Below, piece by piece: positions 2,975 through 64,000 of a stretch of 64,000 bases of DNA. Made by a program: the position numbers and the translations under genes. A model generated the notes under the pieces. It saw only the letters and a list, made by a program, of their open reading frames with translations. It was not told where the DNA came from and searched no databases. Numbering within the stretch: position 1 is the stretch's first letter; each line of letters opens with the position of its first letter. The DNA is from Lytechinus pictus. Lineage: Eukaryota. The stretch covers positions 40,426,001 through 40,490,000 of the forward strand of contig NC_087251.1 of assembly GCF_037042905.1 (NCBI RefSeq), written 5' to 3'.

Positions 2975-2998
2975 TCTCTCTCTCTCTCTCTTTCTCAC

Positions 2999-3064
<66 letters not shown>

Positions 3065-3089
3065 AATAATATATATGTATGTCTGTCTG

Positions 3090-3162
<73 letters not shown>

Positions 3163-3185
3163 TTATTTATTTATTTATCTATCTA
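2975..3185. repeat. (CT)n and (TCTA)n microsatellite
   Basis: Direct inspection. Confidence 0.95.
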
Positions 3186-9530: not shown

Positions 9531-10101
9531 GTAAGTCAGATTGTGATTTATTTGTTAAAGTAAAGACACTGAAAATAAATTATAAAGAAGAATAAAACAC
9601 GAATAGAATGGAGAAGGATTAATTTCTTATAAATGTGTGTGTCTTTGACATGAATTCATCCACATATTTCCACATGTCCTATTTTTTTTATTTACAAAAG
9701 AAAAACAAAGTTCCAAATTGGGGGAACTTCGCCCCCTTGGTGTGGCCACCATTTACCATATTAAAAGAGATCGAGTTTACTGTAATCTCTGACTCGGAAA
9801 CGTTTCGTGTCGGAGGCACGAATGCAAAAGGCTTTATAATCACACACCTTTTTGTACTTTAAGCCGCCTAGACACAACACCATTTTTAAACCTTCTAAGA
9901 CGATTATAAGATTATAAATCTATTTATATCACCATTTTCGCTATTTAGTACATTTCCTTGTAAACCAAAATAAAATGTTTCTCCCCATGTTTATTTCAGT
10001 TATCCGTGGGAAAAATCAAACATCGTTGAAATAGTCATTAGTCCCGGAGATGAAGGCTAAAACATTAACGGGTTTGTACTTTTGCATTTAATTTGGTCCA
10101 T

Positions 10102-13135: not shown

Positions 13136-13980
13136 TACATTGTGATATGGTAAGTTCAGTAAAATACAGGGGTCAGCAATTTTAATCACAAAATATGTTA
13201 GAAATTATATAGCAGCCAGGAGAGAGGGCTTCATGAAAACCATCATTAAATATATTTTGACAAAATGATGTTACGAAATTTAAAAAAAATATTGAAAATT
13301 AGAAACTCGGTTGGGAAGAATATGAAATTGATTTTGGTAAAAAGAAGTGCAAGTGCATGCACGTGGGTCAGTGCAGGTGATAGAATTATGTATACTTAGA
13401 AGTAAGAAACTTTAATTACAGGTATACATTCTACGATGGTATAAATTCATTTTAATTCCGAAAATATGCCAAACATTTTAGAGAGGGGAAACATTGCGGA
13501 TGGGCCACAGTTCTTAAAAGTTAACGAGCGATCAAGAATTTTCAACTTTTTTTTAAAAAATACATTGTGATATGGTAAGTTCAGTAAAATACAGGGGTCA
13601 GCAATTTTAATCACAAAATATGTTAGAAATTATATAGCAGCCAGGAGAGAGGGCTTCATGAAAACCATCATTAAATATATTTTGACAAAATGATGTTACG
13701 AAATAAAAAAAAAAAATTGAAAATTAGAAACTCGGTTGGGAAGAATATGAAATTGATTTTGGTAAAAAGAAGTGCAAGTGCATGCACGTGGGTCAGTGCA
13801 GGTGATAGAATTATGTATACTTAGAAGTAAGAAACTTTAATCACAGGTATACATTCTACGATGGTATAAATTCATTTTAATTCCGAAAATATGCCAAACA
13901 TTTTAGAGAGGGGAAACATTGCGGATGGGCCACAGTTCTTAAAAGTTAACGAGCGATCAAGAATTTTCAACTTTTTAAAA
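13136..13980. repeat. near-identical 425-bp tandem duplication
   Basis: TACATTGTGATATGGTAAG... starts at both 13136 and 13561. The copies differ mostly in homopolymer runs. Confidence 0.93.
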
Positions 13981-41449: not shown

Positions 41450-41577
41450 ATGGCTCCGTATCGGAGCATGATGATCGGCTTTCCCTGTCTAACTCAAGTA
41501 AAAGCTGTTCTAAGCTGTCTTTTGTTGGCTGTTGCTTATGTGGGAAGTCTTTATGTGTGGAAGAGAGAATTACCGAG
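41450..41577 (+). CDS. RCE1: CAAX prenyl protease 2 (Ras-converting enzyme 1), coding exon 1
   Basis: ATG at 41450 reads MAPYRSMMIGFPCLTQVKAVLSCLLLAVAYVGSLYVWKRELP+AG, followed by donor AG|GTATGT at 41578. SCL..A..YVGSLYVWK.ELPR matches the RCE1 N-terminal motif as I recall it (human ...YVGSLYVWKSELPRDHP...). Phase 2 joins in frame to exon 2. Confidence 0.93.
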
Positions 41578-41944
41578 GTATGTTGAAATAAATGTAACAA
41601 TACTCGATACGGTGATGTTATGTTGCTGAGTGTTGAATCAATGAATGTTGATTGTTGTGATTGCCAGCGCCACAGACTTCGATACCTCTTCTCGGCGGTA
41701 CGGTACCGGTACCTATGGCTATGTGCGATATTTTGTGTACGTAAGTAGATGGACGTTATCATGTTTACGTGCTAGCGTGTGTTCCAACGGCACAACCACA
41801 CAGGGGTTTACCTTTGCTTTGGAATCCAATGCCATGTGATATAATGTATCGTGTGTGTGATGCCTCGTTCTAACACTACAGTTAGTATCCATGCTCTCAT
41901 AATCGATTATGACATATTGTATTGTAAAGTTACCCACACACACT

Positions 41945-44900
41945 CAACGTTCTCGCCAGGTTCACTCTGAGGCTTGGCGGCGCGAAGCGACGCAAGCCGC
42001 GCAGCGGCCTCGGTGCGTGTGCGAAGCACGCACGGGGGGAGGGTTCGGGAGGGGGGTGTCCCCCCTCCCGCGCAAAGCGCGGTAGCTATCGAAAATATCA
42101 ATATCGACGAGCTTAGATTGCTGCTAAATGCACCACATTTTATGTCTATTTAATGCTTCTCCGGCCACACAGCCGTAACGGTTGCGCGAATTGCGATTAA
42201 AGCAGAAAGGCAATTACTGATAACTTAAAAATTGAAGTCAATCTCATTTTATACTTACAGTTTATAGACTATTTACATCTATGAATTAACTCCATACTTT
42301 CCAATGTTCAGATCGATATCGCTACATCCTTAGAAAGTGCAATTAATTTTGTGAATGCGTGTTGTTTCTTATGTCAATGACCGACTGCATCTACGGACCG
42401 CATGCGTAGCCCTTTGAGCTTGCGCTGCGTCACGCCCTTACTAAATCCAAAGATTGTTCCGACTTTATACCTCGGTCACATTTGTTCTACGGCGGCCGTA
42501 CGGCGAGTCGAAAACAGCCGTTTTAACATTTTTTGTACCAGCTGAATATAGGTGGTTACCGTGGTTTGAATGAAAATGAATAAAACGGCTGTTTTCGACT
42601 CGCCGTAGAGCAAATGTGACCGAGGTATTATTTGGAAATCCGAGGCTTCCAAATAATGGGCATCGGTATTCATGAGACGGGGTCCCCAACTTATATAATT
42701 TTCATGGTTTTTTGTTTGGTTTATTCGATACTCACTGAAACTATAACTCTCATAAGACTTCTGTTGATGATGTTTATACTAATAATTTCTAATCGAGATT
42801 CTTTTATCACAGTCAATTATTGCTGTGTTCCTTTGTATTGTTCGTTACTCACCTATAAAATAATGAATGTGCTGTGCTCATCACGAGCGTGAGAAATATT
42901 TTTAGTCATTCATTATACTCTAATATTACGAATTTGTTTTTCTTAACTGCGATTTAAAATGTTTTGAAAGTATAGGTTAATTGACAGGAAATAAGATTTC
43001 TATTTTTACATAATACATTATGTAGGCCTACAAATACAGCGTGTGTGAAAGAGAGGAAGAGGGGTGGGGTTGTAGGATGGTCGAAGGGAGAGAGCGATAG
43101 GGGAGGGGTCGTGGCGTGGACAATGACAAGGGGATGTTGAGATTGTGTGTGTGGGATTGGTGAATAAGTCAATATTCGAAGCGAATACATTTTTATAGAC
43201 GTGTCTATACTTCTACCGATGATGACGGCCGAATAATCTTTCTTACATGTATATTTTGGTGAATTTAAAAAATATTTTCTTGCACCATGAGTGGGATGAT
43301 CGAGGTACGTGATTCAATAAATTGCATCACAATATCACCATAGGTGTAGTTTGAAAATCACGAACAGTTTATTAAAAATGAATAAAAGAGAAAGATCTTC
43401 TTAATTTTATAGCCCCCATCCAGCGTAAACACCATGAAGAGTTTTTGAGGTCACGAAATCAGCTGATTCGCACTCAAACAACAGGTTAACAGGTCACACA
43501 CGTGGGACACATTCCAAGGGCGGGAATTCGGGGAAACCCGTTTTCAAGCACAATGATTGGCTCAACCCAGAAAGTGAATACTAATTAGATCACGTGCCAT
43601 CGGCTTTGGGGCGTCTCGTTCACATTCCAACTCATTTCATAAATATCATCCACTCGCAGTATAATTAGGCTAACGACGTTGCCAAGATATAACTCATATA
43701 TTAAAAGCACAATTCCGATATAAAACATAAAGACATAAGTGAACTTGAAAAATTCATCCAACGATATTAAAATTATACTAGCAACTCATTGTGGGCGTGA
43801 AAAAACGATATACATATCCGATATCCTCTAAAACGTTCACACATATCAACTTCAATAATTCGTACTTGAAACGAATATCTGTGAATGAATTGCCAATTCC
43901 ACTTTGTTGAATGTGTACTTCTATCGAAATCTATTGAATCACGTACCTCTCCCGACCCAAGGTGGATTTTCCAATCGCCATAAAGATTATGCAGCCACAA
44001 TCACAGTAGACACATCCATAAATGAATATTAATTTCATTCGCTACGAACTTAATCCCCTCCCCACAAAGTCACAAACATCCCATCATTTTCATCTACATT
44101 GCCCACGGCCACCCCCCATTCTCTTTTTTTCCTTTACACAAATTAATTTCAAATGATATTTTGTTTTAAATCGTAGTTAAGCAATTGTACAACAAATTCA
44201 TAAAGCATTCACTGTGATGACTAAAAACATTTATCAGGCCCGCGACAGGTGCGCTCATTATTTAATTGGCAGGCAAAGAGTAATAAAGAACAATACAAAT
44301 GAAAATACACTGTACGTATAACTCACATAAAAAAAATGAGTCGTAATGATAAAAAATGTGAATAATATTAATAAAGATTATTAATTATGAAAATTATAAC
44401 AGATTCAATGAATATATGAAAAAAATCAAATTAAATTAGTTTTGGATCCCATCTAATCTTGGAAGACTATCGGATCCCCGGATCAAGGATTTTGATGCCA
44501 TGTGCGATTTGTATTATGAATGTGACCGTTGCGAGCGCGAGTGCAGTGGCACAGAACTTGGTAGACACGCCGTCGCGAAATTAATCAACAGTTTCAAAAG
44601 ATCGACGTAGAGATCAAGACTTTGGAAATAATGGAATAAAATCGGAATTTAAATGTGAATAAATCATTTTGATGTAAGTAAATGAGTTGGACATTATATC
44701 AATCCATTCCATTGGCTTTGTCATTATTAACGTGATCTTTGAATAGTTTTTCTCAATTCGCTCTACGGCAGTGTCATCAGAAATGCATTCAATGAATTCA
44801 AGTAGATGTAGCTATAAAGGCTGGGGCCTGGGACGAGATGAAACTATATTTCGATCGAATTTTGATAGTAATTTTAACACACTTTATTTTTGACATAATA

Positions 44901-45366
44901 AGTGACAATATCAACTGAAATTCGTATTAATCTAAATTACATTGCCCAAGCCAGTAACCCACGATACCCCTCTCCCCTCACTTGTTTTTGAGCGTATTTA
45001 CTACCATTTTAAAGACGTAAATAATGTGAGCAATGCGATACGCAAATGCGAGGTAAACATCTTCGCGCTTCCCACAAAAGAGATTGGGCCTCGAGTCGAG
45101 GTCGTATCGTATATAGCGCACTAGTAGTGAGTGAGTCAAAGAAATCCCGGGAAGAAATCGTGGACGAAATAATCGACAAGTTTATTTTAGGATCTGAAAA
45201 GCAGATTATTTATTTTTATATATTATTCAGTTTTTGTGTAGATCTAGGCCTGCTTTACAGTTGTCGGCCACGGTTGTCGGTGAAGTTCAGGGTCGGCGGA
45301 TTTGCCCTGAAAATTTTCAGGCTTGGCGGCGCCCGCCAACCGTGACGCGTGGTAGCGAGAACGTTG
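41945..45366. mobile_element. 3.4-kb non-autonomous hAT-like DNA transposon in RCE1 intron 1
   Basis: TIRs CAACGTTCTCGC (41945) / GCGAGAACGTTG (45355-45366). Perfect 8-bp TSD CACACACT at 41937-41944 and 45367-45374. Subterminal AGGCTTGGCGGCG at both ends. No transposase ORF. Confidence 0.88.
42468..42627. mobile_element. PIF/Harbinger-like MITE nested in the hAT-like element
   Basis: TIRs TACCTCGGTCACATTTG / CAAATGTGACCGAGGTA, with a TTA TSD on both sides. Confidence 0.88.
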
Positions 45367-46467
45367 CACACACTCACACTAGTACGAGGTTAGTATATAC
45401 TAACCTCGTACACCGAACCGTGTTTGACCCTTGATTTCGAAGTAGTCGGCAAACATCGCTTCATTGCTGAAGTAATACTAATATTTGCCGAAACTCCTTC
45501 TCGCTACTCACCGGGGCTCTTTCCGGTAAGTAGCAATACATTAAAAAATTAAAAATGTAATTTGAATATAATAATCGGTCAAAAAGAGCAAATTTTGCTT
45601 ACCTCGGCCTGGAAAGTAACTTCGTTTGTCTCTTCTACGGAAATACAAGGAGGCCCGTTGGTGGCGCTAATAAATTTCACAACCTTGATTCAGCTCCTCG
45701 GTAATTTTATAACTGTGTCTAAATTCTTTGAATGCGCAATTCTTATGATTAATTTACTAATTATGGGCACCAATAAATGAAATACCTTCAAACATGTCAA
45801 AAACATAATTCAAGATTATTATTGGCGATGATAACACTTTTCTGCAATTAATTTAAAACGATGACTAATAAAGAAAAATTGAAAAAAATATACGTGCCTG
45901 GAACGAAACCAGCAGTACAGGCTTTAACGAACATCAATAATACGGTATACCAAAGTCTTTACAATGAAAAGATTGGACACTTCACGGACTTTGCGTAATT
46001 ACCTGCGTCAATTTGCGTGTAAAATAGTGTAGGTGCCTAGTCTTTCCCTTGTCGTGTCTTTGATATGAATATAAATCGCGCGCCCTCTTTAGACGAAAAT
46101 TGATATCGGCGCTGACCAAATTTTATCTCCGTGAAATCTTCACTAAAGATCAAGAAAATATACATATCTTTTAGAAGAAACTTCAAGGAGAAGTCACGGA
46201 AGGATCTAAATGATTGGGTAAGTGTCATAGCAGAATGTGAAATCCCTAATTATGTGTGATGTTTTATGTGGGCGAAAGCCCAGTAGTATATGGATGTGTC
46301 GTGTGTGTCGCGTTATTATGAATAATATTCCTTCGCATGCGAGATGATATGAGCCCATGGGTGACCCACACAGGTTATTCAAACTTAATTAACTTAACTT
46401 TTGAAATTAAGTTAACTTGCCAGCGACAGATATCCTTTAATTGTGTGCATGCGACATTACTTTTTCA

Positions 46468-46600
46468 ATTTGTCTCGCCCACCAGAGGTGAAGGCGAGAC
46501 TAAGGGATCCAAATGTCGTCTGTCCATCTGTCAAACATTAATCACGTAAGTCACTTTTCAACCGAATTTGGATGGTAGATGTAGATGTACATCGGGGACA
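46468..46600 (+). mobile_element. Helentron/HINE-like terminal fragment
   Basis: T-run, stem GTCTCGCC-CACC..GGTG-GGCGAGAC, then a GTCGTCTGTCCATCTGTC microsatellite-like tract. Confidence 0.45.
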
Positions 46601-47196
46601 AAAATTATCTCTCAAAAACCAGTGACCAGTGAGAAACTGTCACTTTATGGTAAAAAAGGCAACATATGACAAAAAAAATACATTAAGCTTACTCTACAGT
46701 GAACTTTCCATCGGACACAGACTCACTCCTTGCCCTTTCTTGTAAACGTCTAAAAATCAGTGATTTGAAGCCAGTTCTCAGTTCATCACACATATTAAAT
46801 TCTATGCCTAATAGTAAAATTATAGCAGTTTGGTTGACCAAAATTTGATATAATTATGCACATTTATTTGTTAAGTCAAGTAGCTGATTACCTCAGATTT
46901 TCTATGCATACTTTATTTATTCCTAAATAAAAATTACAAAATATAAATGCTTTTATGTCATAAATTGTACCCTTACTTTAATAGAGGAAGACCCATATCA
47001 ATAGCTTTTGTCATCCAGCGTTCACGGTGAGGAGTAATAATAGACCTCTAGAAAATCGGCCACCGATTTTCTCGATGAAACCCAGGGCCGGCCCCAGTCC
47101 ACCGATTCGCAGATTACGCAAACCTACATTACCTCGAACCCTTCTCGGTCCATTCGCCAGCTGGTGCGAATTACGTCAAATCGCATAAATTTCCAG

Positions 47197-47452
47197 ATGA
47201 AGGAGGAAGGAAAAGTATGACGAGTGAGATGAAAAAAAGAGGAAGCGGAAGAAGAAGCAGGAGGAGAAGAAGAGGAAGAAGAAAAGAAGAAGAGGAAGAA
47301 GAAAAAGAAGAAAAAAGAAGGAGGAGGAAGAGGAGGAGGATAAGAAGAAAAAGAGGAGGAGGAAGAATAAGTAGTAGAAGAAGAAGAAGGAGGAGAAGAT
47401 GAAAAAGAAGAATGAGGGAAAGGAGAAGAAGAAGTAGAAGAAGAAAGGGAGT
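47197..47452. repeat. purine-rich (GAA/GGA)n low-complexity tract
   Basis: Direct inspection. Confidence 0.9.
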
Positions 47453-47789
47453 GGAATACACAGTTTTGTGAATAAGATAATATTGCATGCTAGGCATAAA
47501 ATCTACTTTTTTCTGTACAATAATCACCAACCTGCTTGTACATCCAAAAAGCTAGATTAGTGATTGTATAATGATTGTATAATTTAAAGGCGACTTATTC
47601 CTCGTTTAGATCTGTCTCTCTCTGGTGTCATACTAAACAATCGTCCGGAAAGAACACTGCATGAAATTCCTTATCAAAACACGAGGTACACGTGCGAGGG
47701 CCATTTAGATTAGAACAAACATCTGCGGTAATCGCGAGATGCGATGTGATCGTACCTATTCCACTGAGGGGAAAAACGCGCGCAAACAA

Positions 47790-48860
47790 CTCTTATGTAT
47801 TTTCCTGGTCCTATTTTTATCTTCTTTTTTTTTTTAATGAATTTTTATGTATCTCCTTGTTTTAATATTTTCATCTTCTATTAATTCTTATGTATATTTT
47901 GTTCACTCCTTCCGTTTTCTTTATGATTTCTTATGTATTTCTATAATATGTTTTAATTCTTCTTTCACTCTCTTTTCTATCAAATCTTATGTATTTCTAT
48001 TTTTCAATTCTTCTCTTCTCTTTATTTCAATCAATTATGTATTTTATTGTTTTGTGTTTTCTATCATATTCTATAAATTATTTTGTGTTTCTTTGTTTTA
48101 ATTTTTCTGTCATATTTTCCTCGACCAATTCTTATGTATTTCTATGTTTAAATTTTCTTGCATCTTTGTCTATCAATTCTTTCATTTACTTTCATTTATT
48201 CTTCTATCAATTATGTATTTTTTTTTTTCATCTTTTCTTCTATCAATTCTTATGTATTTCTTTGTTTTATTTTTTCTTTCATCATATTTTCTTTTATCAA
48301 TTGTTATGTATTTTCTTGTTTTAGTTCTTCTTTTATAATAATAATGGTGGCTACTATTATAGCGCACAGGTCCACGTTTTTGTGCTCTAGGTGCTTTAAA
48401 AAGGCACTGCGTTATTATTACCCTGGCTAAGCTAGTCAACCGATTAAGGCGCACACAGCTTTTTGAGGAATTATTTCCTGCCGGTACCCATTTACATCAC
48501 CTGGGTTGAGTGCAGCACACAGTGGATGAATTTCTTGCTGAAACGTCAAGGCTGGGATTTGAACCCACGACCCTCTGTTTCAAAGTCCGGAGACTAATCC
48601 ACTGGGTCACAACGCTCCACATATCTTTATCTTCTGATCTATTAATTCTTATGTATTTCTTAGTTCCGATTTTTCTTTTTTCTTTGTTCTATCAATTATT
48701 TTGTATTCTGTTTTAATCCTTTTTTCTACAAAATCTTATGTTTTTCTTTGTTTTCTCCTTCCGTTTTATTTTTTTATAATTTCTCATGTATTTCTTTGTT
48801 TCATTTCTTCTTTCCTCTTCTTAATCAATTTTCTTATGTATTTATTTGTTTATAATTATG
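47790..48860. repeat. degenerate T-rich minisatellite (TTCTATCAATTCTTATGTATTTC core) interrupted by a SINE
   Basis: The core recurs roughly every 40-50 bp on both sides of 48334-48620. Confidence 0.7.
48334..48620 (-). mobile_element. tRNA-derived SINE (same family as 30325-30601)
   Basis: On the minus strand: B-box GGTTCAAATCCC, body CAGCAAGAAATTCATCCAC.GTGTGCTGCACTCAACCCAGGTG...AATGGGTACCGGCAGGA, and an (ATT)n tail. Confidence 0.85.
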
Positions 48861-49054
48861 TCTTGATTCATCTTTTGTCAATGTCAGTCAATGGAAAAAG
48901 TGCGAGCTGCACATCGATCAAGACCATGCACTCAGATAAAGGACTTCCATTTTCTATGCTGTATTTACGCCACGACCGTTTAGACCTACAGTCCAACAGT
49001 GGATCACGCCATATAATCTTGCGATTGTGCTAGGCTGTCTAGAGTGTATTTTAC

Positions 49055-49366
49055 TTCAATAATAATGCACTTTAATAATCAGTTGTCAATCCAATTGTTC
49101 TAGTTCTTGGTAGAAAATAAATGAATTTACCTAATTTCATATAATAAAATACAAAAGAACAAGTGGGGATATGACATCATCAGCCAACCTAATGAATATT
49201 CATAAAGACATGCCTAGAATTGTTTCACCACAATAATGCAATTCTTTAAAATTTTAATAACTTTGTTATTTGTTATCCGATTTTGATCAAATTTTCAGCA
49301 TTTGCTTTGTGAATTTTACTCTATTTATTGAGATATAAATATATCCAGCCTGGACCATCCCTTTAA
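49055..49366. mobile_element. right half of a Kolobok-like MITE
   Basis: Ends CAGCCTGGACCATCCCTTTAA; matches the 29039 family. Confidence 0.75.
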
Positions 49367-49432
49367 TAATCACACATGCAAATGTACATTGGTCATTGTT
49401 AGAACCTGGGAGATTAGAGTTGATCCCATCAT

Positions 49433-49865
49433 AGACCCCATTCTCATTACACTTTCTAAAACTAGTTTACTGGAAACCGGTTTAGGAAACCAGTTTGGAA
49501 GATCGCTCTGCTAGCGTTCCCATATGATCACTCGAAAGTGGTTTTCAAAATCACTTCAAATAAAGCAGTCTTGTTGCTACGGGAACACTCACAGTGGGGT
49601 GATATGTTTTGCGTGAAATTTGAAACCGCAGCGTAGGCATTCTACACACGGTGTGTGGAGTAGCGCGCTCAAAATGTGCGAAGATAGCTTCCCAAAGAAC
49701 AGTTCAGTCCTCACGCTAAAACCAGTTTAACGAGGCAAGCGATCTTGAAAACTACATCGCGAGATGGTTTTATTAACCGGTTCGGGAGATCGCTTCGACC
49801 GTTCTCATTTCACGTTCAACTAGTTTCCACTAAACTAGGTATAGGAAGGTAGTGAGAATGGTGTC
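49433..49865. mobile_element. Harbinger-like MITE
   Basis: GACCCCATTCTCATTAC...GTAGTGAGAATGGTGTC, with internal AAACTAGTTT/AAACCGGTTT repeats. Confidence 0.65.
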
Positions 49866-51411
49866 CAAGTCCCTGTTTTACCATGGGACTGCATTTTGCC
49901 TACGTATCTTTATCTCACCAGATGTGTATTTGAAATGTGTTTTATCATGGTTCTGTTTATACTTCCTCAAAAACCCTGAGTCTGGTCAAACGACGTGTAG
50001 AAACGCACCTTTTTGTAAGTTTACGATCGGACAGTGTTCTGAAACATTGTTTAAATGCAAGTAAGCATGGACTTAACTGTATTTTTGGACTAATCACGTA
50101 TGAAAACGCTGATTCTGGCCTGAAAAGTGGAAGCATAAACATGCCGCTAAGCCCAGTGGAGCATAATGATTGTTTTCTCCCTGGTGATGCTCATCAGTGG
50201 TTTCATTAAACCTCCCAGAAGTGTGGTTATCAGCTCACTGAGGTCATCAAGGTGTGTTAGAGAATGTGGATGGTATGCATAGCAACAGTTGCCGAGGCAA
50301 AACGTTTACAGTGAATTGTGCTATTTACATGTATAATAGATATGCGGTATACCATGAGCAGTATTGAGAGTGATGTAGATTAAGTGTACATGTATGATGA
50401 GTGATGACAGTGTCATTCAATGTTGGAATATCTACATGTACCCCCGCCCTTTCTTCAATTATGCATAGAAGTACATGCACTTTATTTGTAATAAAATTAA
50501 AATCAGCTCGAAAAAAAAACAACAAATAATATCTTTTTGTAAATTAAAGGGTGAAACTTTATACCCTAGGACTTTGTTGTTGTTAGAGTTGTCCTGTATA
50601 TTTCTATTTTCAATTCAAATGCAGCTATATTTTTTGTCATTTATTGGTTAACTGACTTCTGAGTTTCATGATAACTTCAATGAGCCTACATATATTTGTA
50701 TTGAGATGAATTGATATAAAATTATTGAAACAATTCCAAATGTTAATTTTACATGTAGTGAAAAAATAATTCTGAGCCTAAATCTCATGATGCTACATGT
50801 ACAGAAACATGTATTTCCTATCTCACCTCAAAAAATTGCTCTACTGAATTGTTTTAGACATGATTACATTGCTTATTTTTAGAACATCTATTTTTATACC
50901 GGTATATCTTGTTTTAAAAAAGTGACAAACTGTCCATTATTCAGTCAGTAATAATCAGTCTGTGAGATGTAGAAGATAACATTTATTTGGCATTGTCTGT
51001 GTGAGAGTAATAAGCCAAGGGAAAGTGTATTGGCTTCATCAGTAGGCTTGGGATGTCACCCCTCTCCGACACTGACTCTCACAGCTCTGATCAAAGACCA
51101 AACTAAAGGATATATTTTTCTGAATTCCCCTCTGGTTGTGGCTAACGAGGATTTCAAACCTATGTGTATCAGCATTGCATAATATCTGATTTAGATTTTT
51201 TTTTGCATTCTTTTACACGTTCATTCAAATATATTGTGTTCAGCTTATCATTATTAGTGTCATATTATTGGATTGGTTTTCTTCCGCCTTTTATTTTATC
51301 GCAATCAATCAAGACTTTACCAGATACATACTTATGTTTTATAAATCATGCAGTGCTCAGCAATCAGCTGCCTAAATTATGTTGTATTATCAATGTAGAC
51401 AATGCCCCATA

Positions 51412-52024
51412 TTAAAGTTTGAGTCCACCCCAACAAAAAGTTGATTTGAATGAAAAGAGAAAAATCAAACTCGCATAACACTGAAATTTTCATAAAAATC
51501 AGATGAAAAATAAGAAAGTTATGACATTTTAAAATTCTGCTCATTTTACCCAAAACAGTTATATGCACATCACAGTTATATTCAACTGAGAGATATGATG
51601 ATGTCGCTCACTCGCTATTTTTTATTTTATTTTATTGTTTAAATTATGCAATATTTCATTTTTTTTGACATTTTTCAAAAAATCACAATAGATTACAAAA
51701 ATTGCTATTACTCATGTTCAAGGAGGAATTAAACTTTGTTTGTCATATATACAATTATGAGAAGATGAAAATATATCATTTTTCATATCATAAAATACAA
51801 AAGAAATATTGAGTAGATGACATCATCTGGTCATCAGTTCCCTCATTTGTACACTAACCAGTGCTTATAAATGTTTTGTGAACTTCAGTGAAACTGTTAA
51901 AGTCACAACTTTCTTATTATAGTAATTTGACATCGAATTTTGATGGAATTTTCAGCATTGATCTTGTTTGATTTTTCTGTTTTTATTTTTTGAACTTTTT
52001 TCTGGGGTGGATGTGTTTTTTGAA
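51412..52024. mobile_element. TTAA-type Kolobok-like MITE (same subfamily as 10230-10803)
   Basis: TTAAAGTTTGAGTCCACCCCAACAAAAAG...CTTTTTTCTGGGGTGGA. Confidence 0.72.
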
Positions 52025-52600
52025 GACCGCATTGGAAGTAAAACTGTAAACACACCCTAAACATTGGCCAGCTGTGTAGAAGTAGCACACAACATGTACA
52101 ATGTCAATGATGCACGTTTCATGCACTTCCACTGCGCTGAGGCCACCTTCCCCCTTGGCCCTTAGCCCCACCTATTTCCCGGGGTTAAGGAAAATTTCTG
52201 TAGTGTGAAACTGAAAAGCATACTAGAAGGTCTGAGCGAGAAAGAGTGGCACCCTCTTACACAGTATGCACACAAACCCAAAACATAATGATAATTGTTT
52301 TTACTACAATAAAAAAAAGTATCTAGGCCCCCATATATATTTCATATGGATGGGTTGTGATAGATCTCACCCAATGTATATTGCCAAATAATTGCCCAAG
52401 ACTTTGGGTGGTATGATTACAATGAGGAAATGAATAAAAGTCATTCTAGGCAAGGCAAGTCCATTTTTGTTAGTGTCAAGCCAACCTCAAGGCATTTCAA
52501 GAAGACTGGTGTCAAACCAGGAAGTAACCTACAATTGCTATTGTCTAACCTATATATGTATGTATACAGTAGTTGCCCAGTTTTATTCTCAGTCTGCAGT

Positions 52601-52997
52601 GGGCGATTCCATGCGTGTCGTACGGGACATTTTGACAACAATTTCTAGTTTCCTAGCCGAATGCTTGAGCAATGAAATATTCTTTGTTGTCAATGATAAA
52701 GTTATAGTGGGTAGTCATGTGAAAAACTAATAACCAACACAAAAAAATTGATTATGGGTAAATTATAGGTGAAAATGTTGTGCGTCGTACGGGACGCAGA
52801 AATGTCCCGTATGACACGCAACATTTTAAGCTCTAATTCACCTATGGACAACATTTGTGTTGGTTGTCAGTTTTTTGCATGTCTACCAAGTAGTCCTTCA
52901 ATATTACCACAAAGCAAATTGAAGTTCTTTATTCGTTTGGACAGCAGGTTGAAAAATGTTGTGAAAAATGGCTGATTTTTCTAGCATGGAATTGCCC
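52601..52997. mobile_element. MITE with a 4-bp TSD (Sola-like)
   Basis: TIRs GGGCGATTCCATGC / GCATGGAATTGCCC, with CAGT duplicated on both flanks. The superfamily is inferred from GRG termini plus the 4-bp TSD. Confidence 0.78.
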
Positions 52998-53010
52998 CAG
53001 TGTACAGTAG

Positions 53011-53266
53011 TAAATCATCTCAAACACTCAAACTTTCACATGACAAGAAAAAAAAGAATAAAACCGAAAAATAGAATTACATGTACTGTTATATTATCAA
53101 AAAGGAAAATGAAAATAGGGAGATGAAATAGGCTATAGCTGTCTATAGCTAAATCATCTCAAACACTCAAACTTTCACATGACAAGAAAAAAAAAAAATA
53201 AAACCAAAAAATAGAATTACGTTTACTGTTATATTATCAAAAATGAAAATGAAAATAGGGAGATGA
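53011..53266. repeat. ~139-bp-period tandem duplication
   Basis: TAAATCATCTCAAACACTCAAACTTTCACATGACAAG...GGGAGATGA occurs at 53011 and 53150. Confidence 0.88.
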
Positions 53267-53267
53267 C

Positions 53268-53812
53268 AATAAAGCAATATTGACTGGCCTCGGGGCGATA
53301 CGACATATATCGCCCAAACTATCAATTTAGCGAGGGCGATATATGTTTTCGCCCCCAGGCCAGTCAATATTGCTATTATTAACCAAATCAGACATCTAGA
53401 GCGAAAATCTTTAAAATTTAGATTTGTTAAATTTTTAGAATGAGAATCTAGTTTATCATGTTGAGCAGACTGGGCCTCTGAACTTTACCATTGTGACGTA
53501 ATTGAAATGACGCGTCCCTGGCCTAGGGACACAGTATCCAGCGTTGTCTTAACTTGATTACCATTATGACGTATAGCACTGCGCGGTTCAAGGATGCGTG
53601 CAAAAACGCGTAGAATACCCGGATATTAGCGCTGCCTTTTATTGCCCGCTACATTTCCACGCATTTTCTCATTGACTTTCCTGAGTGGGCAATAAATTGG
53701 GCCCGTGGATAAACAATTGGAATTTTATTGACCGGCCATTTGATCCCAGTCTTAAGCAGGCAACAATGTTTCAAAGTTGCCCTGCTCAGATGTCTGATAC
53801 GGTTAATAATAG
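53268..53812. mobile_element. double-hairpin non-autonomous element (Crypton-like)
   Basis: Hairpin AGCAATATTGACTGGCCT...AGGCCAGTCAATATTGCT (53273-53374). It abuts a second inverted pair CTATTATTAACC.AATCAGACATCT / AGATGTCTGATACGGTTAATAATAG (53373-53812). Confidence 0.55.
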
Positions 53813-54186
53813 TCTATAGCTTTCTATAGCTACGGCTTTGCTAGTCTAGTCTTCTGGAATTCTTCGAGATAACACTTTGGCACCATATCTATTTGTAATT
53901 GTAGTAGATTACATTCTAAGATATTAACTAGATTCTGTACGAACAAAGGGAACGGACATGAAACCTATGTACTACAAGTAGGGACCAACACAAATATTTG
54001 ACTGATTTAAATTATGCTGAGGATAAAGCATGATAGCATGATATCACAAAAGGCACTGTATAAATGAAATGTTTTTATTATTTAAAATGGAAATGGAAGT
54101 GGCAATTAAAAGAAATGAAAATCAGCAGAGATAATGAATTAATATTGCCAGCTGCTTAATCCTTAACCCTTTTTTGTTTATTTCAG

Positions 54187-54292
54187 AGACCATCCGAAGA
54201 CGATCAAGCAGAGGACACTTAGTGTGTTTGTAATATGTTTAGCAGCCCCATTGTTTCTCCTTTTTATCAGCAGTGAAGTACCGTATAATCAG
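54187..54292 (+). CDS. RCE1: CAAX prenyl protease 2, coding exon 2 (gene continues beyond the window)
   Basis: Polypyrimidine tract plus TTTCAG acceptor ending at 54186. AG+A completes Arg, then DHPKTIKQRTLSVFVICLAAPLFLLFISSEVPYNQ. Donor CAG|GTAAGA at 54293. Continues the RCE1 motif R-DHP..IK.R..SV. Confidence 0.93.
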
Positions 54293-57200
54293 GTAAGAAA
54301 TATTTACATAACATTTAAAATCAGGTAAGAAACATAACTAAACATTTAAAATCAGGTAAGAAACATAACTAGACATTTACAATCAGGTAAGAAACATAAC
54401 TAGACATTAACAGTGAGGTAAGAAACATAACTAGACATTTACAATCAGGTGAGAATCATAACAAGACATTTACAATCAGGTAAGAAACATAACTAGGCAT
54501 TTACAATCAGGTAAGAAACATAACTAGACATTTACATTCAGGTAAGAAACATAACTAGACATTTACAATCAGGTAAGAAACATAGCTAGACATTTACAAT
54601 CAGGTAAGAAACATAACTAGGCATTTACAATCAGGTAAGAAACATAACTAGGCATTTACAATCAGGTAAGAAACATAACTAGGCATTTACATTCAGGTAA
54701 GAAACATAACTAGACATTTACAATCAGGTAAGAAACATAACTAGACATATACAATCAGGTAAGGAACATAACTAGACATTTACAATCAGGTAAGAAACAT
54801 AACTAGGCATTTACAATCAGGTAAGAAACATAACTAGGCATTTACAATCAGGTAAGAAACATAACTAGGCATTTACAATCAGGTAAGAAACATAACTAGG
54901 CATTTACAGTCAGGTAAGAAACATAACTAGGCATTTACAATCAGGTAAGAAACATAACTAGACATTTACAATCAGGTAAGAAACATAACTAGACATTTAC
55001 ATTCAGGTAAGAAACATAACTAGGCATTTACAATCAGGTAAGAAACATAACTATATATTTACAATCAGGTAAGAAACATAACTAGGCATTTACAATCAGG
55101 TAAGAAACATAACTAGGCATTTACAATCAGGTAAGAAACATAACTATACATTTACAATCAGGTAAGAAACATAACTAGGCATTTCCAATCAGGTAAGAAA
55201 CATAACTAGGCATTTACAATCAGGTAAGAAACATCTAGACATTTACATTCAGGTAAGAAACATAACTAGACATTTAAAATCAGGTAAGAAACCAAGCTAA
55301 ACATTTAAAATCAGGTAAGAAACATAGCTTAACATTTAAAATCAGGTAAGAAACATAACTAGGCATTTACAATCAGGTAAGAAACATCTAGACATTTACA
55401 ATCAGGTAAGAAACATAACTAGGCATTTACAGTCAGTTAAGAAACATAACTAGGCATTTACAATCAGGTAAGAAACATAACTAGGCATTTACAATCAGGT
55501 AAGAAACATAACTAGGCATTTACAATCAGGTAAGAAACATAACTAGACATTTACAATCAGGTAAGAAACATAACTAGGCATTTACAATCAGGTAAGAAAC
55601 ATAACTAGGCATTTCCAATCAGGTAAGAAACATAACTAGGCATTTACAATCAGGTAAGAAACATCTAGACATTTACATTCAGGTAAGAAATATAACTAGA
55701 CATTTAAAATCAGGTAAGAAACATAGCTAAACATTTAAAATCAGGTAAGAAACATAACTAGGCATTTACAATCAGGTAAGAAACATAACTAGACCTTTAA
55801 AATCAGGTAAGAAACATAACTAGGCATTAACAATCAGGTAAGAAACATAACTAGACCTTTACAATCAGGTAAGAAACATAACTAGGCATTTACAGTCAGT
55901 TAAGAAACATAACTAGGCATTTACAATCAGGTAAGAAACATCTAGACATTTACATTCAGGTAAGAAACATAACTAGACATTTACATTCAGGTAAGAAACA
56001 TAACTAGACATTTATAATCAGGTAAGAAACATAGCTAAACATTTAAAATCAGGTAAGAAACATAACTAGGCATTTACAATCAGGTAAGAAACATAACTAG
56101 ACATTTACAATCAGGTAAGAAACATAACTATACATTTACATTCAGGTAAGAAACATAACTAGACATTTACATTCAGGTAAGAAACATAACTAGACATATA
56201 CAATCAGGTAAGAAACGTAACTAGGCATTTACAATCAGGTAAGAAACATAACTAGGCATTTACAATCAGGTAAGAAACATAACTAGGCATTTACAATCAG
56301 GTAAGAAACATAACTAGGCATTTACAATCAGGTAAGAAACATCTAGACATTTACATTCAGGTAAGAAACATAACTAGACATTTAAAATCAGGTAATAAAC
56401 ATAGCTAAACATTTAAAATTAGGTAAGAAACATAACTAGGCATTTACAGTCAGTTAAGAAACATAACTAGGCATTTACAATCAGGTAAGAAACATCTAGA
56501 CATTTACATTCAGTTAAGAAACATAACTAGACATTTAAAATCAGGTAAGAAACATAGCTAAACATTTAAAATCAGGTAAGAAACATAACTAGGCATTTAC
56601 AATCAGGTAAGAAACATAACTAGACATTTACAATCAGGTAAGAAACGTAACTAGACATTTACAATCAGGTAAGAAACATAACTAGGCATTTACAATCAGG
56701 TAAGAAACATAACTAAACATTTACAGTCAGTTAAGAAACATAACTAGACATATACAATCAGGTAAGAAATGTAACTAGGCATTTACAATCAGGTAAGAAA
56801 CATAACTAGGCATTTACAATCAGGTAAGAAACATAACTAGGCATTTACAATCAGGTAAGAAACATAACTAGGCATTTACAATCAGGTAAGAAACATCTAG
56901 ACATTTACATTCAGGTAAGAAACATAACTAGACATTTACATTCAGGTAATAAATATAACTATACATTTATAATCAGGTAAGAAACATAACTAGGCATTTA
57001 CAATCAGGTAAGAAACATAACTAGGCATTTACAATCAGGTAAGAAACATCTAGACATTTACATTCAGGTAAGAAACATAACTAGACATTTAAAATCAGGT
57101 AATAAACATAGCTAAACATTTAAAATTAGGTAAGAAACATAACTAGGCATTTACAGTCAGTTAAGAAACATAACTAGGCATTTACAATCAGGTAAGAAAC

Positions 57201-60200
57201 ATCTAGACATTTACATTCAGGTAAGAAACATAACTAGACATTTAAAATCAGGTAAGAAACATAGCTAAACATTTAAAATCAGGTAAGAAACATAACTAGG
57301 CATTTACAATCAGGTAAGAAACATAACTAGACATTTACAATCAGGTAAGAAACGTAACTAGACATTTACAATCAGGTAAGAAACATAACTAGGCATTTAC
57401 AATCAGGTAAGAAACATAACTAAACATTTACAGTCAGTTAAGAAACATAACTAGGCATTTACAATCAGGTAAGAAACATCTAGACATTTACATTCAGGTA
57501 AGAAACATAACTAGACATTTAAAATCAGGTAAGAAACATAGCTAAACATTTAAAATCAGGTAAGAAACATAACTAGGCATTTACAATCAGGTAAGAAACA
57601 TAACTAGACATATACAATCAGATAAGAAATGTAACTAGGCATTTACAATCAGGTAAGAAACATAACTAGGCATTTACAATCAGGTAAGAAACATAACTAG
57701 GCATTTACAATCAGGTAAGAAACATAACTAGGCATTTACAATCAGGTAAGAAACATCTAGACATTTACATTCAGGTAAGAAACATAACTAGACATTTAAA
57801 ATCAGGTAATAAACATAGCTAAACATTTAAAATTAGGTAAGAAACATAACTAGGCATTTACAGTCAGTTAAGAAACATAACTAGGCATTTACAATCAGGT
57901 AAGAAACATCTAGACATTTACATTCAGGTAAGAAACATAACTAGACATTTAAAATCAGGTAAGAAACATAGCTAAACATTTAAAATCAGGTAAGAAACAT
58001 AACTAGGCATTTACAATCAGGTAAGAAACATAACTAGACATTTACAATCAGGTAAGAAACATAACTATACATTTACATTCAGGTAAGAAACATAACTAGA
58101 CATTTACATTCAGGTAAGAAACATAACTAGACATATACAATCAGGTAAGAAACGTAACTAGGCATTTACAATCAGGTAAGAAACATAACTAGGCATTTAC
58201 AATCAGGTAAGAAACATAACTAGGCATTTACAATCAGGTAAGAAACATAACTAGGCATTTACAATCAGGTAAGAAACATCTAGACATTTACATTCAGGTA
58301 AGAAACATAACTAGACATTTAAAATCAGGTAATAAACATAGCTAAACATTTAAAATTAGGTAAGAAACATAACTAGGCATTTACAGTCAGTTAAGAAACA
58401 TAACTAGGCATTTACAATCAGGTAAGAAACATCTAGACATTTACATTCAGTTAAGAAACATAACTAGACATTTAAAATCAGGTAAGAAACATAGCTAAAC
58501 ATTTAAAATCAGGTAAGAAACATAACTAGGCATTTACAATCAGGTAAGAAACATAACTAGACATTTACAATCAGGTAAGAAACGTAACTAGACATTTACA
58601 ATCAGGTAAGAAACATAACTAGGCATTTACAATCAGGTAAGAAACATAACTAAACATTTACAGTCAGTTAAGAAACATAACTAGACATATACAATCAGGT
58701 AAGAAATGTAACTAGGCATTTACAATCAGGTAAGAAACATAACTAGGCATTTACAATCAGGTAAGAAACATAACTAGGCATTTACAATCAGGTAAGAAAC
58801 ATAACTAGGCATTTACAATCAGGTAAGAAACATCTAGACATTTACATTCAGGTAAGAAACATAACTAGACATTTACATTCAGGTAATAAATATAACTATA
58901 CATTTATAATCAGGTAAGAAACATAACTAGGCATTTACAATCAGGTAAGAAACATAACTAGGCATTTACAATCAGGTAAGAAACATCTAGACATTTACAT
59001 TCAGGTAAGAAACATAACTAGACATTTAAAATCAGGTAATAAACATAGCTAAACATTTAAAATTAGGTAAGAAACATAACTAGGCATTTACAGTCAGTTA
59101 AGAAACATAACTAGGCATTTACAATCAGGTAAGAAACATCTAGACATTTACATTCAGGTAAGAAACATAACTAGACATTTAAAATCAGGTAAGAAACATA
59201 GCTAAACATTTAAAATCAGGTAAGAAACATAACTAGGCATTTACAATCAGGTAAGAAACATAACTAGACATTTACAATCAGGTAAGAAACGTAACTAGAC
59301 ATTTACAATCAGGTAAGAAACATAACTAGGCATTTACAATCAGGTAAGAAACATAACTAAACATTTACAGTCAGTTAAGAAACATAACTAGGCAATTACA
59401 ATCAGGTAAGAAACATCTAGACATTTACATTCAGGTAAGAAACATAACTAGACATTTAAAATCAGGTAAGAAACATAGCTAAACATTTAAAATCAGGTAA
59501 GAAACATAACTAGGCATTTACAATCAGGTAAGAAACATAACTAGACATATACAATCAGGTAAGAAATGTAACTAGGCATTTACAATCAGGTAAGAAACAT
59601 AACTAGGCATTTACAATCAGGTAAGAAACATAACTAGGCATTTACAATCAGGTAAGAAACATAACTAGGCATTTACAATCAGGTAAGAAACATCTAGACA
59701 TTTACATTCAGGTAAGAAACATAACTAGACATTTAAAATCAGGTAATAAACATAGCTAAACATTTAAAATTAGGTAAGAAACATAACTAGGCATTTACAG
59801 TCAGTTAAGAAACATAACTAGGCATTTACAATCAGGTAAGAAACATCTAGACATTTACATTCAGGTAAGAAACATAACTAGACATTTAAAATCAGGTAAG
59901 AAACATAGCTAAACATTTAAAATCAGGTAAGAAACATAACTAGGCATTTACAATCAGGTAAGAAACATAACTAGACATTTACAATCAGGTAAGAAACGTA
60001 ACTAGACATTTACAATCAGGTAAGAAACATAACTAGGCATTTACAATCAGGTAAGAAACATAACTAAACATTTACAGTCAGTTAAGAAACATAACTAGGC
60101 ATTTACAATCAGGTAAGAAACATCTAGACATTTACATTCAGGTAAGAAACATAACTAGACATTTAAAATCAGGTAAGAAACATAGCTAAACATTTAAAAT

Positions 60201-63200
60201 CAGGTAAGAAACATAACTAGGCATTTACAATCAGGTAAGAAACATAACTAGACATTTACAATCAGGTAAGAAACGTAACTAGACATTTACAATCAGGTAA
60301 GAAACATAACTAGGCATTTACAATCAGGTAAGAAACATAACTAAACATTTACAGTCAGTTAAGAAACATAACTAGGCATTTACAATCAGGTAAGAAACAT
60401 CTAGACATTTACATTCAGGTAAGAAACATAACTAGACATTTAAAATCAGGTAAGAAACATAGCTAAACATTTAAAATCAGGTAAGAAACATAACTAGGCA
60501 TTTACAATCAGGTAAGAAACATAACTAGACATATACAATCAGATAAGAAATGTAACTAGGCATTTACAATCAGGTAAGAAACATAACTAGGCATTTACAA
60601 TCAGGTAAGAAACATAACTAGGCATTTACAATCAGGTATGAAACATAACTAGGCATTTACAATCAGGTAAGAAACATCTAGACATTTACATTCAGGTAAG
60701 AAACATAACTAGACATTTAAAATCAGGTAATAAACATAGCTAAACATTTAAAATTAGGTAAGAAACATAACTAGGCATTTACAGTCAGTTAAGAAACATA
60801 ACTAGGCATTTACAATCAGGTAAGAAACATCTAGACATTTACATTCAGGTAAGAAACATAACTAGACATTTAAAATCAGGTAAGAAACATAGCTAAACAT
60901 TTAAAATCAGGTAAGAAACATAACTAGGCATTTACAATCAGGTAAGAAACATAACTAGACATTTACAATCAGGTAAGAAACATAACTATACATTTACATT
61001 CAGGTAAGAAACATAACTAGACATTTACATTCAGGTAAGAAACATAACTAGACATATACAATCAGGTAAGAAACGTAACTAGGCATTTACAATCAGGTAA
61101 GAAACATAACTAGGCATTTACAATCAGGTAAGAAACATAACTAGGCATTTACAATCAGGTAAGAAACATAACTAGGCATTTACAATCAGGTAAGAAACAT
61201 CTAGACATTTACATTCAGGTAAGAAACATAACTAGACATTTAAAATCAGGTAATAAACATAGCTAAACATTTAAAATTAGGTAAGAAACATAACTAGGCA
61301 TTTACAGTCAGTTAAGAAACATAACTAGGCATTTACAATCAGGTAAGAAACATCTAGACATTTACATTCAGTTAAGAAACATAACTAGACATTTAAAATC
61401 AGGTAAGAAACATAGCTAAACATTTAAAATCAGGTAAGAAACATAACTAGGCATTTACAATCAGGTAAGAAACATAACTAGACATTTACAATCAGGTAAG
61501 AAACGTAACTAGACATTTACAATCAGGTAAGAAACATAACTAGGCATTTACAATCAGGTAAGAAACATAACTAAACATTTACAGTCAGTTAAGAAACATA
61601 ACTAGACATATACAATCAGGTAAGAAATGTAACTAGGCATTTACAATCAGGTAAGAAACATAACTAGGCATTTACAATCAGGTAAGAAACATAACTAGGC
61701 ATTTACAATCAGGTAAGAAACATAACTAGGCATTTACAATCAGGTAAGAAACATCTAGACATTTACATTCAGGTAAGAAACATAACTAGACATTTACATT
61801 CAGGTAATAAATATAACTATACATTTATAATCAGGTAAGAAACATAACTAGGCATTTACAATCAGGTAAGAAACATAACTAGGCATTTACAATCAGGTAA
61901 GAAACATCTAGACATTTACATTCAGGTAAGAAACATAACTAGACATTTAAAATCAGGTAATAAACATAGCTAAACATTTAAAATTAGGTAAGAAACATAA
62001 CTAGGCATTTACAGTCAGTTAAGAAACATAACTAGGCATTTACAATCAGGTAAGAAACATCTAGACATTTACATTCAGGTAAGAAACATAACTAGACATT
62101 TAAAATCAGGTAAGAAACATAGCTAAACATTTAAAATCAGGTAAGAAACATAACTAGGCATTTACAATCAGGTAAGAAACATAACTAGACATTTACAATC
62201 AGGTAAGAAACGTAACTAGACATTTACAATCAGGTAAGAAACATAACTAGGCATTTACAATCAGGTAAGAAACATAACTAAACATTTACAGTCAGTTAAG
62301 AAACATAACTAGGCAATTACAATCAGGTAAGAAACATCTAGACATTTACATTCAGGTAAGAAACATAACTAGACATTTAAAATCAGGTAAGAAACATAGC
62401 TAAACATTTAAAATCAGGTAAGAAACATAACTAGGCATTTACAATCAGGTAAGAAACATAACTAGACATATACAATCAGGTAAGAAATGTAACTAGGCAT
62501 TTACAATCAGGTAAGAAACATAACTAGGCATTTACAATCAGGTAAGAAACATAACTAGGCATTTACAATCAGGTAAGAAACATAACTAGGCATTTACAAT
62601 CAGGTAAGAAACATCTAGACATTTACATTCAGGTAAGAAACATAACTAGACATTTAAAATCAGGTAATAAACATAGCTAAACATTTAAAATTAGGTAAGA
62701 AACATAACTAGGCATTTACAGTCAGTTAAGAAACATAACTAGGCATTTACAATCAGGTAAGAAACATCTAGACATTTACATTCAGGTAAGAAACATAACT
62801 AGACATTTAAAATCAGGTAAGAAACATAGCTAAACATTTAAAATCAGGTAAGAAACATAACTAGGCATTTACAATCAGGTAAGAAACATAACTAGACATT
62901 TACAATCAGGTAAGAAACGTAACTAGACATTTACAATCAGGTAAGAAACATAACTAGGCATTTACAATCAGGTAAGAAACATAACTAAACATTTACAGTC
63001 AGTTAAGAAACATAACTAGGCATTTACAATCAGGTAAGAAACATCTAGACATTTACATTCAGGTAAGAAACATAACTAGACATTTAAAATCAGGTAAGAA
63101 ACATAACTAGACATTTAAAATCAGGTAAGAAACATAGCTAAACATTTAAAATCAGGTAAGAAACATAACTAGGCATTTACAATCAGGTAAGAAACATAAC

Positions 63201-64000
63201 TAGACATTTACAATCAGGTAAGAAACGTAACTAGACATTTACAATCAGGTAAGAAACATAACTAGGCATTTACAATCAGGTAAGAAACATAACTAAACAT
63301 TTACAGTCAGTTAAGAAACATAACTAGGCATTTACAATCAGGTAAGAAACATCTAGACATTTACATTCAGGTAAGAAACATAACTAGACATTTAAAATCA
63401 GGTAAGAAACATAGCTAAACATTTAAAATCAGGTAAGAAACATAACTAGGCATTTACAATCAGGTAAGAAACATAACTAGACATATACAATCAGGTAAGA
63501 AATGTAACTAGGCATTTACAATCAGGTAAGAAACATAACTAGGCATTTACAATCAGGTAAGAAACATAACTAGGCATTTACAATCAGGTAAGAAACATAA
63601 CTAGGCATTTACAATCAGGTAAGAAACATCTAGACATTTACATTCAGGTAAGAAACATAACTAGACATTTAAAATCAGGTAATAAACATAGCTAAACATT
63701 TAAAATTAGGTAAGAAACATAACTAGGCATTTACAGTCAGTTAAGAAACATAACTAGGCATTTACAATCAGGTAAGAAACATCTAGACATTTACATTCAG
63801 GTAAGAAACATAACTAGACATTTAAAATCAGGTAAGAAACATAGCTAAACATTTAAAATTAGGTAAGAAACATAACTAGGCATTTACAATCAGGTAAGAA
63901 ACATAACTAGACATTTACAATCAGGTAAGAAACGTAACTAGACATTTACAATCAGGTAAGAAACATAACTAGGCATTTACAATCAGGTAAGAAACATAAC
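54287..64000 (+). repeat. 31-bp tandem satellite in RCE1 intron 2, each unit carrying a 5' splice-site motif
   Basis: Consensus CAGGTAAGAAACATAACTAGGCATTTACAAT (31 bp), with 29-bp variants (CAGGTAAGAAACATCTAGACATTTACATT). Continuous to the window end; about 310-320 units by length division. Confidence 0.98.

Follow-up and report, generated by a model that had tools for sequence, protein, structure and literature searches.

An intronic minisatellite that probably arose from the exon 2 splice donor of RCE1 in the sea urchin Lytechinus pictus

How is a 5′ splice site chosen when the intron behind it opens with hundreds of copies of that same site, and does such an array serve the gene that carries it? 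Both questions arise at the RCE1 gene of the sea urchin Lytechinus pictus, in a window of 64,000 nucleotides (the whole stretch analysed; contig NC_087251.1, positions 40,426,001 to 40,490,000, here G000:C7:40426001-40490000 of an 812-Mb assembly) and in the 60 kb that follow it (L009, in which L009:1885 is G000:C7:40491885). A 31-bp repeat begins at the border of exon 2 and intron 2 of this gene and reiterates the splice donor found there. An earlier reading made without database searches (the sequence-only reading) had proposed that the array could act as a sponge for the U1 small nuclear ribonucleoprotein (U1 snRNP) or as a copy-number-dependent control on RCE1 splicing. We consider it likely that the array is instead a locus-specific intronic minisatellite of satellite size, with its first monomer across the RCE1 exon 2/intron 2 border, that productive splicing takes place at the first donor, and that the remaining copies are a tolerated by-product.

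Tandem Repeats Finder detects one array at the end of the window, with periods of 31 and, second, 277 and with 90% matches over 315.6 copies. Allowing up to 3 mismatches, a 20-mer taken from the unit matches the window 315 times, always on the plus strand, against 0.02 matches expected from shuffled sequence. The junction reads ...TATAATCAG/GTAAGAAA (the slash marks the splice border throughout) and, over a longer stretch, ...GTACCGTATAATCAG/GTAAGAAATATTTACATAACATTTAA, then AATCAGGTAAGAAACATAAC...; the repeat register runs from AATCAG, 6 bases inside exon 2, which bears out the earlier statement that the array starts at the exon 2/intron 2 junction. The array of about 300 donors described in the sequence-only reading is real, but it does not end with the window: it continues to L009:1885 and comprises 377 units in 11,599 bp, or 90% of RCE1 intron 2 (12,842 nt). 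Over this whole length the units lie head to tail, spaced by 31 in 336 cases, by 29 in 39 and by 32 in one.

The donor is reiterated with high but incomplete fidelity. Within the window, 258 of the 316 units contain an exact CAGGTAAGA, 215 an exact AATCAGGTAAGAAA, and 288 keep the GT; in the whole array the corresponding counts are 310, 255 and 347 of 377. The GT is lost in 30 units, 28 of them reading CAGTTAAGA and 2 reading CAGATAAGA. The donor is thus re-created in about four units in five (the exact 9-mer in 310/377) and not in almost every unit, as had been claimed, but the accompanying claim that the pre-mRNA would present hundreds of donors as strong as the real one is correct, the unit being identical to the real site from -6 to +8. 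A accounts for 46.5% of the bases of the array, and its RNA has no stable fold (z = +1.0; 176 of 200 shuffles were at least as stable). A G-to-T change at donor position +5 (GGTAATAAA) gives rise to 17 AATAAA hexamers, each within one unit of intact donors. They stand at window positions 56394, 56948 and 57101 and at 14 more places, and are carried within higher-order blocks.

The unit occurs in no other array of the 812-Mb assembly. Genome-wide counts of repeats are to be read as lower bounds; with that proviso, a 23-mer of the unit, with up to 2 mismatches allowed, matches the assembly at 314 places on the forward strand and at 0 on the reverse, and the array itself contains exactly 314. The half of the unit that lacks the donor, with up to 3 mismatches, has 320 forward matches and 1 reverse match genome-wide (a control pattern has 3), and 317 of these 321 fall inside the array; the 4 strays are at chance level when set against the control. 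The repeat is therefore private to this locus and not an abundant satellite unrelated to the junction.

Because the unit is private to the RCE1 locus and also carries the exon end, amplification of the junction segment is the straightforward reading, and we infer, as the sequence-only reading did, that the end of the exon and the first intron bases were amplified in tandem. The exon end and the unit consensus agree at 6 of the last 6 bases and at 8 of the last nine, and at chance level beyond that, and the identity extends across the donor region to +8. The units carry AATCAG before GTAAGA, and since a chance recurrence of six given bases has a probability of about 1/4,096, the duplicated segment should have included the exon end; an intron-only duplication would not yield AATCAG in front of GTAAGA. 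The terminal Q codon of exon 2 is common to the echinoid proteins seen and the preceding N (AAT) is common only to L. variegatus, a pattern that would fit an origin of the array within the lineage shared with that species. The right flank of the array was considered as a relic of the ancestral unit and rejected, as 120 of 500 shuffles gave a local alignment scoring at least as high as its own (8).

The array contains 58 distinct unit variants. A letter-coded map of the units shows heterogeneous edges, made up of the first ~55 and the last ~40 units, around a homogenised centre of nested higher-order blocks, and self-identity peaks at lags of 31, 62, 2921, 1937 and 707 bases. The longest exact internal repeat is a block of 2,466 bp that recurs 2,921 bp further on. 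Block structure and an exact duplicate form the usual signature of slippage followed by unequal exchange.

RCE1 encodes CAAX prenyl protease 2. Its exons were placed by tblastn with the Lytechinus variegatus protein P0004 (CAAX prenyl protease 2-like), which gave nine exons on the plus strand with GT-AG borders and an open conceptual product of 308 amino acids, 297/308 identical to P0004. PF02517 (Rce1-like) matches above its curated cut-off at exon 6 (27.7 bits), 22 kb downstream of exon 2, and a protein search with that exon returned CAAX prenyl protease 2 entries, those of sea urchins ranking first. All genome matches of P0004 (9/9) fall at this locus, so the gene is single copy, with no paralogue and no processed copy. 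Further PF02517 matches on C19 and C3 are not paralogues, being below the cut-off (E 0.49 and 3.3) and absent when the full protein was the query. A protein of 193 amino acids assembled from a public run (P0002) matches exon 6 and continues for ~100 residues unlike the aligned RCE1 proteins before it takes up the sequence of exon 7 (AHIHHIIERLRFG...). It looks like the product of reading on through intron 6, retained in a related urchin.

The frame of exon 2 at 54188-54292 translates as DHPKTIKQRTLSVFVICLAAPLFLLFISSEVPYNQ. Its donor is, by two simple measures, the best of the gene's eight, matching the consensus CAGGTAAGT at 8/9 positions, as had been stated before, with a simple duplex energy of -11.0 kcal/mol against the U1 5′ end, and the exon 2 acceptor has a strongly pyrimidine-rich tract. 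The U1 5′ end motif and the donor consensus used for scoring are short motifs of general knowledge.

Table 1. Coordinates of the RCE1 exons, the donor array and the contigs that align to exon 2 (window positions unless marked L009)
Feature	Position	Strand	Basis or remark
RCE1 coding exon 1 (from ATG), donor GAG/GTATGT	41450..41577	+	tblastn with P0004, exon model
Intron 1, 12,609 nt	41578..54186	+	exon model
RCE1 coding exon 2, 106 nt (...DHPKTIKQRTLSVFVICLAAPLFLLFISSEVPYNQ)	54187..54292	+	translation, P0004 match, contigs
Authentic intron 2 5′ splice site CAG/GTAAGA	54290..54298	+	8/9 match to CAGGTAAGT
RCE1 exon 3	L009:3135-3215	+	exon model
31-bp tandem array, window part	54287..64000	+	316 units; remainder up to L009:1885
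First, diverged 32-nt unit across the exon/intron border (6 exon + 26 intron bases)	54287..54318	+	singleton variant
Exact 2,466-bp block, first copy	57719..60184	+	longest exact internal repeat; recurs 2,921 bp on
Exact 2,466-bp block, second copy	60640..63105	+	same internal-repeat analysis
333-nt contig, run X1 (organism A)	54185-54293		0 differences
1030-nt contig, letters 104-212, run X4 (organism A)	54185-54293		0 differences
1275-nt contig, run X14 (organism B)	54185-54293		7 differences

Which donor is used can be read from assembled public data. Four public runs from two coded organisms (A and B) were aligned to 53700-54450 at 85% likeness; all the data are contigs, and they speak to presence and bridging only. 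In three of the four runs (X1, X4 and X14), one contig each covers exon 2 and its immediate borders only (Table 1), and on both sides of the aligned interval these contigs are unlike the genome. In X4 the letters before it are ...GTGTGGAAGAGAGAATTACCG, the end of exon 1, so exon 1 is joined directly before exon 2. Because the genome holds no processed RCE1 copy, the three contigs come from spliced RNA. The stretch read earlier as an expressed exon is RCE1 coding exon 2; its expressed form has precisely these limits, and it is at the first donor, the most upstream of the series, that the transcript departs from the genome. The G at 54293, one letter past the exon end, matches the contigs as well, and exon 3 begins with that letter too.

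The proteins of other urchins point to the same donor. In 4/4 fetched echinoid proteins that cover the junction, exon 2 ends in Q and exon 3 follows (in L. variegatus, ...EVPYNQ/GLSLCEHLG). Because orthologous proteins join ...NQ/GLSL, the first donor is the productive one, and it is the only one that yields the conserved protein. Translation past it ends after 11 codons, and stops occur in each of the three frames of the unit, so any downstream donor gives a premature stop. A search of a collection of 5.8 billion sequences found no protein that extends into array-coded peptide; its 4 hits are confined to the exon part and span no more than 77% of the query.

The contigs have little to say about the units as such: X4 has none on them, X1 has none on 54298-54323, and cover by X14 and X1 is low over later units, which is uninformative for intron retention or for absence. 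In no indexed public run does the share of the sampled words of 53700-54450 exceed 0.21, and no RNA run is listed as containing the stretch, a result that is uninformative for expression or habitat. Much of the word share is accounted for by a dispersed high-copy repeat in intron 1 (53700-53830), which has many different flanks and summed contig depths of hundreds to tens of thousands in all four runs.

The fourth run, X3, is of DNA type and comes from organism B, a relative. It covers all 29 bins, and its summed word depth, which is not a copy number, is 1634-2592 on the units at 54324-54401 and 42-77 on the unique bins at 54064-54297, a sign that the array unit is multi-copy in organism B as well. 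One X3 contig runs from exon 2 to about 54301, and one "goes back 34" within the units, too slight a sign to bear on copy-number variation between alleles. Exon 2 of organism B differs from the window at 4 places among the differences listed. Among the 4 differences listed for the units, 3 (54409, 54413 and 54415) turn edge variants of the window into the consensus, and the fourth (54348 A>G, depth 1438/1734) is a letter seen in 0/336 of the 31-nt units of the L. pictus array. The pattern suggests that the array of organism B may have been homogenised on its own.

A minisatellite in intron 2 of human IFI6 (6-16) was reportedly described by Turri, Cuin and Porter in 1995 in Nucleic Acids Research (NAR). 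The wider class, minisatellites whose first monomer spans an exon–intron border, was set out by Borensztajn et al. (2006, PLoS Genet, PMC1557585), and the statements below on its members follow the sources cited. In intervening sequence 7 (IVS7) of F7, a 37-bp unit is present in 5-9 copies and only the first site is used (PMC1557585). IFI6 has 25 pseudo-sites, the first two of which are used besides the authentic site (PMC1557585; PMC4526556). CBS IVS13 has 15-20 copies, with two pseudo-sites used, and only the authentic site is used in LMNB2 (10-15 copies of 100 bp) and in intron 4 of PDGF (16-18 copies of 81 bp) (PMC1557585). According to this source, 50 F7 constructs showed that the pseudo-sites are functional, yet the most upstream is chosen by a 5′-to-3′ oriented process; sites of up to 91% consensus value did not compete, whereas perfect-consensus sites shifted some splicing. 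How the first of many identical donors is chosen, a question that the sequence-only reading saw raised by this locus, had thus already been addressed by experiment in human F7.

The RCE1 array has the features of this class: an abutting head-to-tail array, a border-spanning first monomer, a reiterated donor and the first donor in the mRNA. It is not a new category, and its origin and likely behaviour follow published precedent. The closest parallel described is F7 IVS7, where the first monomer also lies across the border (4 exon and 33 intron bases in F7, 6 and ~25 in RCE1) and an authentic donor is followed by identical pseudo-sites, only the most upstream appearing in normal mRNA (PMC1557585). 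However, F7 has 5-9 copies of a weak UGG/gugggu, whereas RCE1 has 377 units of a near-consensus CAG/GTAAGA, with higher-order blocks, over 11.6 kb and in an echinoderm, and the F7 rule comes from mutational constructs, whereas the RCE1 array is known here from sequence and contigs (PMC1557585). The IFI6 repeat also starts from an exon 2/intron 2 border and reiterates the donor, but its two nearest pseudo-sites are described as constitutive and give extra mRNA species, whereas in RCE1 extra units bring a stop or frameshift and the contigs use the first donor (PMC1557585, PMC4526556). CBS intron 13, LMNB2 and PDGF intron 4 likewise reiterate donors, with 10-20 monomers; the copy number in RCE1 exceeds theirs by more than an order of magnitude, and the monomers of LMNB2 and PDGF are longer, at 81-100 bp (PMC1557585).

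A literature search, none of whose 10 listed papers contains "Rce1", found no published report of the RCE1 array in sea urchin. With 377 copies against the 5-26 given for the human cases, it is by far the largest donor amplification from its own exon border documented here (PMC1557585). What is unusual is its scale and strength: a near-consensus donor, stronger than the weak one of F7, reiterated in the only RCE1 gene of the genome, with a multi-copy unit common to a related organism. The gene is single-copy and its sole intact frame needs the first donor; that the mRNA observed is spliced from this donor all the same is a severe test, set by nature, of whether the most upstream of identical donors is selected. 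Sea urchin embryos are suited to minigene injection.

We propose the following course of events. A ~31-bp segment, the last 6 exon bases and the first ~25 intron bases, would have been duplicated in tandem, and slippage and unequal exchange would have expanded it to 377 units with nested higher-order blocks. Each unit would then repeat the gene's strongest donor, AATCAG/GTAAGAAA, and the copies would be pseudo-sites in the pre-mRNA. If the case of human F7 IVS7 is a guide, selection would fall on the identical donor that lies furthest upstream, giving productive mRNA from the first, exon-adjacent one, a choice that may be helped by exon definition across the 106-nt exon with its strong acceptor. 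Transcripts spliced from downstream donors would be unproductive, and their decay is probable. As for the array itself, we regard it as most likely a by-product, tolerated and close to neutral, rather than a device.

Several points weigh against this proposal. The contigs show presence only, and minor isoforms from downstream donors, or isoforms degraded by nonsense-mediated decay (NMD), would be invisible in them; exon 3 is presumed to be the partner of the first donor. Perfect-consensus pseudo-sites are described as shifting some splicing in F7 (PMC1557585), and by analogy the pseudo-sites of RCE1, as strong as the real site, might do the same. The copy number of the array rests on one assembly. 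The array or its seed has apparently persisted across a species split, which is compatible with function as well as with neutrality. The donor positions of the unit are also less variable than the others, with means of 7.4 and 22.6 deviating units per position and 1.9 and 4.5 distinct variants, which could hint at constraint; the numbers of distinct alternative letters, 1.0 and 1.3, differ little, and block amplification makes these counts non-independent.

If the array does act, it might be as a brake, with some transcripts using decoy donors, acquiring a premature stop and being degraded, such that a longer array gives less RCE1. The retention of GT in 347 of 377 units, 310 of them identical to the real 9-mer, is in line with this idea, as are the lack of a stable fold that would hide the donors, the premature stop that follows every downstream donor, and the use of the first two pseudo-sites described for human IFI6 and CBS (PMC1557585, PMC4526556). 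However, the match of all three exon 2 contigs to the genome ends at the first donor, none of the database proteins searched reads into the array, and identical downstream sites are described as silent in F7 (PMC1557585); we therefore regard a brake as unlikely. A broader version, in which ~350 accessible U1 sites of consensus strength form a cis platform kept in at least two urchin species, and array length sets RCE1 output through decay of decoy-donor products or through U1 effects on exon definition or premature 3′ ends, seems to us quite unlikely, although it would make the array a natural, heritable "dial" made of splice sites. We give still less weight to the array as a landing pad for U1 snRNP, which would strengthen the definition of exon 2, suppress cleavage at the AATAAA hexamers of the array or titrate U1 throughout the cell, and consider it very unlikely. 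U1 bound downstream of a natural 5′ splice site is described as able to enhance exon definition (PMC5933811), and all 17 hexamers lie close to intact donors, but exon 2 needs little such help, its donor being the strongest of the gene and its acceptor tract strongly pyrimidine-rich, and the hexamers are a by-product of the array and not its reason. A global sponge is implausible on numbers, as a single housekeeping gene of low output would set a few hundred sites on each transcript against a very abundant snRNP. The sponge and the copy-number control put forward in the sequence-only reading found no support here. The contigs leave the genome at the only donor that gives the conserved protein.

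Splicing might also proceed stepwise, with CAG/GTAAGA serving as an acceptor (a dual-specific, or recursive, site) and then as a regenerated donor, in which case any unit would restore the junction. Every intact unit has AG/GT, the exon end matches the unit from -6 to +8 such that a step would regenerate the site, and tandem arrays of dual-specific AGGT are described as used in human UBC (PMC10809524). UBC resembles RCE1 in having a tandem array with AG/GT in each unit, but its units are described as coding, with stochastic use of 5′ and 3′ sites, whereas the RCE1 unit is non-coding, lacks a pyrimidine tract and gives no sign of such use (PMC10809524). Pyrimidines make up 50% of the 20 nt upstream of the unit CAG, whereas the eight real acceptors of the gene reach 65-90%. 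In short reads, such steps would be almost indistinguishable from unspliced RNA. We regard stepwise splicing as the most improbable account of all. Nearly as improbable is an array created by the assembly, or inflated in copy number by the assembler. The exact 2,466-bp internal duplicate is either very recent or an assembly product and is the main caution on copy number, and, given the low word shares, the source reads were not seen among the indexed public runs. Against an artefact stand the ordered variant structure with its diverged edges, the high depth of the unit in the DNA-type run of the related organism (depth again not being copy number), and the contig of that run that spans exon 2 to about 54301.

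The neighbourhood of the array holds other repeats. The rest of the window has 21 long stop-to-stop frames, of which 15 were scanned against Pfam and matched 0 families; the other 6 frames are three through a 44-bp array (2759-6192), two over an AAG microsatellite and one opposite exon 1. That 44-bp array, at 3186-6083, is a minisatellite of 67 copies with 91% matches, C/T-rich on the plus strand, and it accounts for a strong negative GC skew at 2001-6000 and for the stop-free frames. A (TCTA)n run at 2999-3186 stands directly before it. At 13134-13976 a tandem duplication of very recent date comprises 2.0 copies of a 425-bp unit that are 99% identical. In the part of intron 2 between the donor array and exon 3 (L009:2027-2883), a (CGGCGA)-type microsatellite is followed by 192- and 163-bp tandem repeats, and this stretch looks like part of a mobile element. 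Intron 3 contains AT-rich short tandem repeats at L009:6133-6738 and 9003-9790, with periods of 31, 20, 17 and 129 and mutually reverse-complementary consensus units, which could be the arms of a foldback-type element ~3.6 kb long.

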